Made by a program: the position numbers and the translations under genes
NCBI RefSeq assembly: GCF_033153115.1
Contig: NW_026889758.1
Span: 51,460,001 to 51,524,000, forward strand
Direction of reading: 5' to 3'
Origin: Saccostrea echinata
Taxonomy: Eukaryota
Length of the DNA stretch: 64,000 nucleotides
Notes under the pieces: generated by a model
What the model saw: only the letters and a program-made list of their open reading frames with translations
Database searches by the model: none
Told to the model about the DNA's origin: nothing
Part shown: in pieces, positions 25,253 to 26,878 of the stretch
Position numbering within the stretch: position 1 is the stretch's first letter
Layout: the number at the start of each line of letters is the position of its first letter

Positions 25253-26157
25253 TTACTTATCGCATTTTACTATGGTAGACTTCATCTTCTTCTTGAGCGG
25301 TGAAGGTGATCTTGATCGAGACTTCCTAAAAAGCGTCTCCGCCCTCTCTCTCCTTTCTCTTTTGTAATTCTCCACTCTACCCTTGCGTGGCATGGGCTGT
25401 TTGGCTTTAGGACGTAACTGGGGCCTAAACCATCCCTGATTGTACGATGTCAGTCTTCTGGGGGATATGGTTCGGCGTGATGGAGTGGCTGGTCTATCTT
25501 CCGGCTGCGGGGTGAGTCCCCGCCTTGGTCCGTTGCTATAGAAATAATTACTCAAAGTCTTCGTTAGTTCCTGTACTGCTGTTGTCTGCTCTCTGAGCGC
25601 TGCAACCTGGCGTTCCCCCTGCCTCTTCACCTCCGCCTGCAACTCCTTTAAAGCCGAAACTACGTCATTTTTTTTCACCGTCCCAGACCGCCTCTTCCTC
25701 TCCTAATAGTTGTGGCAGGATATCAACCACCTCTGCAGTGGGACTAATCACCGTCTCTGCAGGTACAAACTCCGATGCTTCTTCCAAAAGAGTCGTCAAA
25801 GAAATTCCGTCACTGTCCACATCTTTACTCTTCTTGGCCCCCATGTTCAACCAATATGCTAGGGATGCTACCTGCTCCCATCTAGATAGCAGATCCTCCC
25901 TCCAAACAAAAGGCTTACTGGCTTGAACTATCTCTACTGGAACATCTGTCCCCTTATGAGGTCCGTACCATTTTCCATGGGCTATTAACTCTTTCTGTAA
26001 GGGATACAAAATCGCAATGTTTGCAGGTAAAGGGTACTTCATCCTTTATCACATGTGTCTTTAAATAATGTTTTATCGCATACTTTTTAATCTGTTTGAA
26101 GTCGCACAGCGTGCACTGGAATAGTCGTCCTTTTTTTTCGGCCTTGGCCACATCCAT
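25253..26157 (-). pseudogene. Gypsy accessory ORF3: two C2H2 zinc fingers, coiled coil and RS-rich tail (two frameshifts)
   Basis: FQCTLCDFKQIKKYAIKHYLKTH, then PFTCKHCDF.../KELIAHGKWYGPH, then the heptad stretch VSALKELQAEVKRQGE..., then KSRSRSPSP. Three overlapping ORFs join at ~25995 and ~25670. Acceptor TGTAATTTCACAG lies 7 nt before the ATG. Confidence 0.75.
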
Positions 26158-26878
26158 GATGAATCTGTGAAATTACAGATAAACAAGGTAAGTATGAATT
26201 TATATTCTCATTATAAAGGATCCCTTGCCAACCCATAGGAGTAGTCTGTTTCATGGCGTGGTTATGTAATAAAAAAAAATTATTATGTACACAAATGTAT
26301 TTAATTCTTTAGAACTTTATACATATAGTACACATGGATTTTATTTTGTTTTATAAATCTGCCATTCATTCTCACATCCAATCATCATTCATGTGGTTGG
26401 AATATAGATTAAATATTGTTTTACTAAATTAATTTAGTATCAATATAATACTCTTAATATCTTCTTTTTTAATATAGATATTTTGTTGAGTCTGAGAGGG
26501 ATTCTTGAGTTGATCATTCATGACCGAAATCCATCCGGGTGAGTACAACATATAAATATGTCAAGATTAAATTGTTACACTCTTTCATTCTTTGTTGGAA
26601 AAAAAATATGTTTATTTAATTAATCTTATTTTTTTTTTTATTAAGCATTCATAACTGGAAGAACCAACTAATAAGAACAGCAGAGGACAAGCCGGTCAAT
26701 TTGGAGGAAAATGTGAATGGCTCTGTTAATGACTCAAGAAAATTTAAGTGGGAAAACCAATGCTTTCAACATCAGACGGGACTTTTCATCCTCACCAAGG
26801 GCAGATAACAAAGTATGTCTCAAGGAAGAAAACCAACAAATTTAGATTAACAACATCTCTGGATAATAATAAATTTTA

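Follow-up and report, generated by a model that had tools for sequence, protein, structure and literature searches.

A Gypsy retrotransposon of Saccostrea echinata carries, between its integrase and its 3' LTR, a third open reading frame (ORF3) that, on sequence grounds, is a gene conserved throughout a Gypsy clade. Purifying selection maintains it, and the copies in which it is broken, the one described here among them, are decayed. Its product is predicted to play a nuclear, nucleic-acid-binding role, an assignment in which we have considerable confidence, and about half of that confidence extends to action at the level of RNA. The explanation that we rank first, by analogy (probability roughly 0.4), is a spliced RNA regulator comparable to Rev, Rex or CERV that would steer the element's RNA toward full-length export.

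A complete Gypsy element on the minus strand

The window, the 64,000-nucleotide stretch analysed here (contig NW_026889758.1, positions 51,460,001 to 51,524,000), holds a complete LTR retrotransposon on its minus strand at 34661-22257. Pfam matches give a gag with a CCHC knuckle followed by RT, RNase H and integrase in Gypsy order; with TG..CA LTRs, a primer-binding site, a polypurine tract and a target duplication in the 4-6 bp size range, the element belongs to Ty3/Gypsy (Metaviridae). The preliminary description had called it Gypsy, and the domain order, the TG..CA LTRs of 2.0-2.07 kb and the 5-bp target duplication agree. Its features, in window positions, are:

34662..34666, no strand: 5' target-site duplication of 5 bp, matching 22252-22256
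32660..34661, minus strand: 5' LTR, TG..CA, about 2.0 kb
34431..34550, minus strand: U3 tandem repeat with 68-nt spacing; two blocks common to family B, candidate protein-binding sites
33743..33750, minus strand: predicted TATA box; initiator-like site at 33725-33720, predicted start at about 33723
33691..33696, minus strand: candidate 5' splice donor, LTR-internal; first exon predicted at about 27 nt, free of ATG
32950..33150 (approximate), minus strand: duplicated hairpin unit of about 90 nt in the transcribed part of the LTR, placed via the LTR alignment; candidate RNA response or packaging element
32778..32810, also 33059, minus strand: AATAAA signals close to the LTR end, read from the sequence
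32638..32655, minus strand: primer-binding site, matching the 3' end of a tRNA-Arg(TCT) gene of the same genome
30719..32512, minus strand: gag (Retrotrans_gag, zf-CCHC), with one in-frame stop at 31639 in the window copy
26879..30797, minus strand: pol (protease region, RT, RNase H, integrase), with several stops and a frame change in the window copy
26165..26192, minus strand: candidate splice acceptor (branch-point-like CTTAC, pyrimidine tract, CAG); exon start 26164
25253..26157, minus strand: ORF3, ATG at 26157, stop at 25255-25253; two frameshifts, near 25990 and 25670, in the window copy
ORF3 protein: twin zinc-finger domain (about residues 1-114), acidic Leu-rich motif, coiled coil, Arg/Ser-Pro tail
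24323..24337, minus strand: polypurine tract, read from the sequence
22257..24322, minus strand: 3' LTR, about 2.07 kb, adjoined by the target duplication at 22256-22252
26436..29878, plus strand: span of antisense GT..AG joints, from contigs of related copies

The two LTRs of this copy differ by 11 substitutions in 1991 aligned bases and by a few indels, the largest of 71 nt. Since the AATAAA signals lie near the LTR end, a long R region presumably extends downstream of the donor. The predicted leader of the unspliced RNA (33723-32512) is 1.2 kb long and has 18 upstream ATGs. Directly after the primer-binding site (window 32655-32600) we observed, by eye and in all six families compared, a hairpin followed by a CCAG-x-GA-x-ACGAAC-like motif, a candidate packaging or initiation signal.

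ORF3 is conserved among copies and families

The ORF of about 300 codons that had been noticed in the window does lie between integrase and the 3' LTR, but its frame is not open here, a point absent from the preliminary description: the two frameshifts spread it over three frames. A DNA search of the genome returned 10 matches. Full-length ones, at 96-100% identity, number five with the window copy counted, and in three of these five close copies (L003, L004 and L005) ORF3 is an open frame of 301 codons. The open copies have LTR pairs that are 99.95-100% identical, target duplications of their own, and long open gag and pol frames, all of which points to recent movement of the family.

Between the window copy and the C30 copy, ORF3 has accumulated 25.5 synonymous and 10.5 nonsynonymous differences (Sd and Nd), giving a dN/dS of 0.11 (Fisher p 8e-10), the same value as the integrase of this pair. 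The ratio was 0.12 with the C4 copy, 0.05 with the C14 copy (79% identical), and 0.23-0.29 within families B, C and D/G where dS exceeded 0.1; overall, well-aligned copy comparisons with dS >0.1 ranged from 0.05 to 0.29. Very young copies gave 0.14-0.82 on 3-8 differences, too few changes to judge, and of two decayed copies that align poorly, C65 gave 0.57 and C16 no value. A lack of conservation among copies had been named beforehand as what would speak against the preliminary reading; copies, families and dN/dS clearly indicate the opposite.

A protein search of the genome with the N-terminal 106 residues of ORF3 yielded 36 matches. Among those inspected, the homologues of families B, C, D, E2 and F are open, with 279-416 aa, and those of families E and H are broken; at least seven further families of the genome carry ORF3, situated 159-715 nt behind integrase where this could be measured. 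Further close relatives, found via integrase, retained the domain in three of three cases, in broken form, and the full domain was absent from 17 more distant Gypsy elements of the same genome. ORF3 and integrase distances across seven families (L081 left out, short integrase core) were not significantly correlated (Mantel rho 0.21, a value reached in 1281 of 5040 permutations). About 1.6 kb right of the window end, at 51525621-51525827, lies another element (L028), which is decayed and has a homologous ORF3.

About 30 further proteins sharing this N-terminal domain came from database searches. The domain is also encoded at eight loci in other public records. At four of these, integrase lies upstream in the same orientation; two of the others have too little upstream DNA and two have no integrase match within 620-930 nt. 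The ORF3-bearing, recently active Gypsy group is probably molluscan. One homologue is named, from the oyster Saccostrea cucullata, and is currently entered as an uncharacterised host gene, an annotation that a family of element-borne regulators would correct.

A twin zinc-finger domain, a long helix and a basic tail

The eight zinc ligands of ORF3 are conserved at 98-100% across 42 sequences, in the patterns C-x2-C...H-x4-H and C-x2-C-x12-H-x6-H, accompanied by a conserved aromatic residue and followed by a Ser-x3-Trp helix. With Cys2-His2 ligands and a predicted beta-beta-alpha fold, the protein is of the C2H2 zinc-finger class; Pfam finger matches for the ORF3 protein (P0001) stay under the cut-off. 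AlphaFold2 models the twin-finger part as a single confident unit (pLDDT 92.8, pTM 0.82), and the remainder as a disordered linker, a 50-residue helix (160-209, pLDDT about 95) and a basic tail that is disordered for the most part. The two fingers, the coiled coil (as the long helix) and the RS tail of the preliminary description are all present, and a coiled coil and an Arg/Ser-Pro tail recur in many of the homologues. Among 23 long members, 17 have RSP-type motifs and 13 an acidic Leu-rich motif, and ORF3 tails contain 11-33% Lys+Arg. The Arg/Ser-Pro tail of the window copy has a C-terminal K-x-K-S-x-V motif. More generally, a C-terminal motif [KRA]-[VILM]-x-S-[VILT]-[VI] (K-x-K-S-V-V-like; window about 25290-25260) recurs in 15 of the 23 long members despite 20-30% overall identity.

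Krüppel-type arrays are characterised by H-x3-H spacing and a TGEKP-like linker. ORF3 instead has H-x4-H and H-x6-H spacings and a longer, non-canonical linker, just two fingers, an added strand and the Ser-x3-Trp helix, and its likeness in sequence and fold to Krüppel arrays (CTCF, REST-like, Kaiso) and to jaz fingers is confined to single fingers. In family C, finger 2 scores 26.7 bits with the Pfam model of the jaz finger, a dsRNA-binding type, and so passes its cut-off of 22.6 bits. Superposition of the twin-finger unit on DNA-bound arrays was poor, with rmsd mostly 5-18 A. Foldseek found no match at E <=0.001 in the PDB or in a viral structure library; the best hit of ORF3 was Kaiso, a methyl-CpG reader, at E 0.04, weakening to E 0.12 (VIA Z 2.7) for the isolated domain. 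In VIA the whole model returned generic coiled coils only and the domain a best Z of 3.9, which does not in itself prove a new fold, and the ESM Atlas returned unnamed clusters and generic fingers only. As modelled, the twin-finger domain is without a solved whole-domain match. Its recognition-helix positions are occupied by basic residues that vary between families.

ORF3 shows no hydrophobic or membrane segment, the best 19-mer scoring 0.13-1.20 across 11 long members, and for this reason is not an env. The absence of a signal peptide and TM segment had been reported from the sequence, and it holds up: the best Kyte-Doolittle 19-residue mean is 0.97 and the N-terminus is charged. Pfam matches of ORF3 include no env family. 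An assignment as env was considered and rejected, as neither a signal peptide nor a TM anchor was found.

Candidate splice signals around ORF3

The pyrimidine tract and CAG described ahead of the ATG were located: CTTAC lies at 26192-26188 and the AG at 26166-26165, 7 nt before the ATG. A strict acceptor rule is satisfied before the ORF3 ATG in 4/8 families, compared with 30/411 control ATGs; a looser rule, fixed after the strict one, is satisfied in 7/8 against 57/411, and the failing family passes in a second copy. At the outside loci, where visual inspection picked the Met closest to the conserved domain as the ATG, the looser rule held in 8/8 against 208/1006 controls. The splice-site rules were chosen with the data already in view.

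The LTRs of the ORF3 families are mutually unalignable, except A with B. In six families they share a mid-LTR TATA box followed by an initiator-like site, and in 6/6 a donor GT[AG][ACG]GT, a pattern picked after inspection, occurs at +54 to +87 from the TATA box (background, 0-6% of 40-nt windows). The fixed TATA-plus-donor rule was passed by 1/17 other Gypsy LTR pairs, with one more borderline (18 control LTRs were examined, one without a pair and some partial); under the narrower TATA pattern of these controls the ORF3 clade would score 5/6, family A failing. Predicted first exons are 26-59 nt long and contain no ATG, and AATAAA stands 70-180 nt before the LTR end in 5/6 families. The spacers before ORF3 hold 3-20 upstream ATGs, and a search of seven for an internal promoter gave TATA-like boxes in 3/7, none with an initiator-like site. 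Because of these upstream ATGs and the lack of a conserved promoter, a separate spliced message is the simplest route to ORF3 protein. From these patterns, the donor likely lies inside the LTR, just after the transcription start, and we regard use of the ORF3 splice sites as highly probable. An acceptor upstream of gag looks plausible in A and B and is inconsistent across families, as judged by eye.

RNA-like data came from contigs of five runs from two studies of related organisms, at low depth and with strand unknown; the runs matched 7-14% of words, their type was taken to be RNA by guess, and none of the runs catalogued as RNA contains the stretch. Only the parts covered by contigs count as evidence. 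Four contig sets contained no joint or loose end at 26164, and four contigs cross it colinearly. An unused acceptor was the other condition named beforehand as speaking against the preliminary reading. These colinear contigs neither show nor exclude acceptor use, since the 27-nt first exon is shorter than the 31-letter contig words and strand is unknown. The word "spliced" in the preliminary description is favoured, as a prediction, by the conserved donor and acceptor sequences; no joined read was seen. Among 15 of 20 joints listed, six are GT..AG on the plus strand, antisense to the element (26537>26645, 26537>27040, 26812>28383, 28005>28381, 28480>28796 and 28479>29878), and none is sense. 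The antisense joints have good splice sites in the window, lie over pol and the spacer, and are in part common to both studies. The exons that they join are short and yielded no antisense ORF; the transcripts could be element-driven antisense RNA or host small-RNA precursors.

Candidate roles of ORF3

The anatomy of ORF3 would fit a nuclear regulator, and the choice among the three roles proposed for one is made by analogy. Under the RNA regulator reading, early transcripts would splice by default, the short LTR first exon being joined to the acceptor before the ATG, and would yield ORF3 protein, which could oligomerise via its coiled coil. The finger pair and basic tail would bind element RNA, possibly at the duplicated hairpins in R, with phosphorylation of RS/SP sites tuning the protein; unspliced RNA would thereby reach the cytoplasm for Gag-Pol synthesis and packaging. 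Given the strong early donor, full-length RNA amounts to one long retained intron. We place this role first because of the basic RS/SP tail, the long-spaced finger 2 with its jaz match and a compact finger pair unlike DNA-bound arrays, and also because of the early donor, the duplicated hairpins after the start site and the CERV precedent. A basic RS tail and a long helix, candidates for the RNA-binding region and the oligomerisation surface of an export factor, are present in sequence and predicted structure. The hairpins occur in A, C and weakly in F, are absent from D and E and are not significant in B; on sister copy L043 they score z -3.3 and -3.5, and the antisense strand folds similarly.

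Against the RNA role stand the missing joint or loose end at 26164, with all clearly canonical joints antisense, and the R hairpins, which are missing in D/E and not strand-specific. No conserved Leu-rich export signal was found in ORF3 by simple pattern, the nearest matches are DNA-binding fingers (CTCF, Kaiso), though weak and local, and some members lack the RS tail and C-terminal motif. As described in the cited portions of two papers, a donor in R may suppress polyadenylation without splicing (PMC3694450), and simple retroelements export unspliced RNA without an accessory protein (PMC10309623).

The fingers could instead act on DNA. ORF3 as a transactivator of its own LTR, like Tas or Tax, would bind the U3 repeats with its fingers, dimerise through the coiled coil and contact coactivators through the acidic Leu-rich motif; that motif, the local matches of its two C2H2 fingers to CTCF, REST-like and Kaiso fingers and the basic, family-variable recognition-helix residues suit such a role. 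The 68-nt U3 tandem repeat is moreover the sole clear LTR homology between A and B, the families whose ORF3 domains are closest to each other (39%). We nevertheless find this rather unlikely: the repeats are absent from C, D and F and their motifs could be host factor sites, the linker, the H-x6-H finger 2 and the poor superposition are not those of DNA-bound arrays, and a transactivator has no need of an RS-rich tail. Less probable again is an anti-silencing factor that shields element DNA or RNA from methylation or piRNA-guided repression, for which the hints are weak. CpG depletion in gag/pol (observed/expected 0.33-0.41 vs 0.74 in the window) and the antisense spliced RNAs suggest host pressure, the best Foldseek match is a methyl-CpG reader, and other Gypsy lineages of this genome have chromatin-like ORF3s (finger plus BTB; H3-tail-like N-termini). 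However, the Kaiso match fades for the isolated domain, and Pfam finds no enzyme or known chromatin-reader domain in ORF3.

We think least of the view that ORF3 has no regulatory role and is a gene fragment captured from the host, an env, or a factor for particles or integration. The function of ORF3 is a prediction, and by analogy a basic, SP-rich tail might just as well serve to condense nucleic acid inside particles; this view is countered by the dN/dS values of the well-aligned copies, by the element context of all inspected genomic matches, by the lack of a membrane segment and, as weak evidence, by a search for a longer host form (736-2100 aa), which found none. It is also quite improbable that the spacer contains an internal promoter that drives ORF3, the arrangement seen for env in some Tor elements, with the LTR donor serving only to suppress premature polyadenylation. 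The published accounts, so far as they were available, offer precedents in the env of Tor3b/4b (PMC4402516) and in the donor-mediated poly(A) suppression of foamy virus (PMC3694450), and the contigs show no spliced joint; yet the few TATA-like boxes in the spacers come with no initiator-like site, and the conserved acceptors before the ATG would lack an explanation, which disfavours this route.

Relation to known elements

Foamy viruses (Tas/Bet) and HTLV (Tax/Rex) have nuclear regulatory genes near the 3' end. These viruses are enveloped, whereas the element described here has ORF3 in place of env, and ORF3 has no match in the viral structure library (E <=0.001). The ORF3 clade and foamy viruses have in common an LTR donor soon after the start and upstream of AATAAA; in the cited part of the foamy virus account, an LTR-internal donor that precedes the poly(A) signal suppresses 5' polyadenylation and is described as unique to these viruses (PMC3694450). 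A precedent is CERV of the Caenorhabditis Ty3/gypsy element Cer1, a nuclear protein made from a spliced post-pol gene and required for the export of genomic RNA. Its published description, as far as cited here, gives 517 aa from five exons sharing gag sequence, a possible C4 loop, a G-protein-like domain and no homology outside nematodes, which sets it apart from ORF3 with its single exon, two C2H2 fingers and RS tail (PMC10309623).

A third ORF after pol, usually with its own spliced or internal-promoter transcript, is known from errantiviruses, Tor elements and bdelloid LTR elements (PMC13524379, PMC4402516, PMC5408684). In the portions of these sources available to us, the products are fusion glycoproteins, membrane or coiled-coil proteins, GDSL esterases and DEDDy nucleases rather than twin-finger proteins, and the word "zinc" is absent from the main text of the errantivirus and bdelloid papers (PMC13524379, PMC5408684). 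Additional ORFs of plant elements (Grande GENE23, Retand) are mostly antisense and, unlike ORF3, are described in the cited text with no mention of a zinc finger (PMC7264820); the accessible parts of mollusc, annelid and Troyka surveys describe no such ORF (PMC6238403, PMC8220671, PMC12440569). The literature we covered holds no description of an ORF3 of this kind; Repbase, Dfam, subscription journals and supplements, outside that scope, may annotate it. Extra ORFs after pol are thus already known, and the twin-zinc-finger ORF3 of this Gypsy clade appears to be a new form with a predicted function.

LTR retrotransposons without env are usually viewed as simple gag-pol elements, and CERV is the only experimentally shown Rev-like factor of a Gypsy element that we found in the literature. 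We tentatively suggest that an env-less invertebrate Gypsy clade may have arrived independently at the design of a complex retrovirus, with a donor in R, a spliced nuclear twin-finger regulator, an RNA response element in R and antisense spliced RNAs. The clade would then belong to a wider, undescribed radiation in which nuclear accessory genes occupy the env slot and which includes finger-BTB and H3-tail-mimic proteins. If so, widespread, selected zinc-finger regulators in young elements would mean that retrovirus-like regulated expression arose repeatedly in Metaviridae, and the means by which these elements export unspliced RNA, or escape silencing, in molluscs would become testable.

Other genes in the env position and neighbouring features

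Of the 17 more distant Gypsy elements, whose integrases are 34-40% identical, 11 have other post-integrase ORFs of 200-325 codons and six have none. These ORFs (loci L092/L094, L095, L096, L098, L099, L100, L101, L102, L104 and L105; also L129) encode finger pairs of other kinds, fingers combined with a BTB domain (PF02214, above cut-off) or acidic proteins. Nuclear-looking ORF3s seem general among the Gypsy elements of this genome. Four ORF3s (L095:897-1586, L098:2530-3294, L101 and L104:2485-3111) start M-x-x-T-K-x-T-x-R-K, which we take to be in register with the histone H3 tail motif; a histone mimic is possible from this likeness, and we found nothing in the literature on histone mimicry by such ORF3s.

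Within 120 nt upstream of the TATA box, four of six families have what we presume to be MYB-like sites (window 33794-33769; LTRs of D, E and F), and the family E LTR contains repeated TCAAGGTCA nuclear-receptor-like sites. Taken at face value, the two kinds of site are hints of germline or gonadal expression. Elsewhere in the window, 41416-53271 is occupied by a Polinton/Maverick-like element with a protein-primed DNA polymerase B in pieces, an integrase with a chromodomain, and an ORF combining CARD and PC4.
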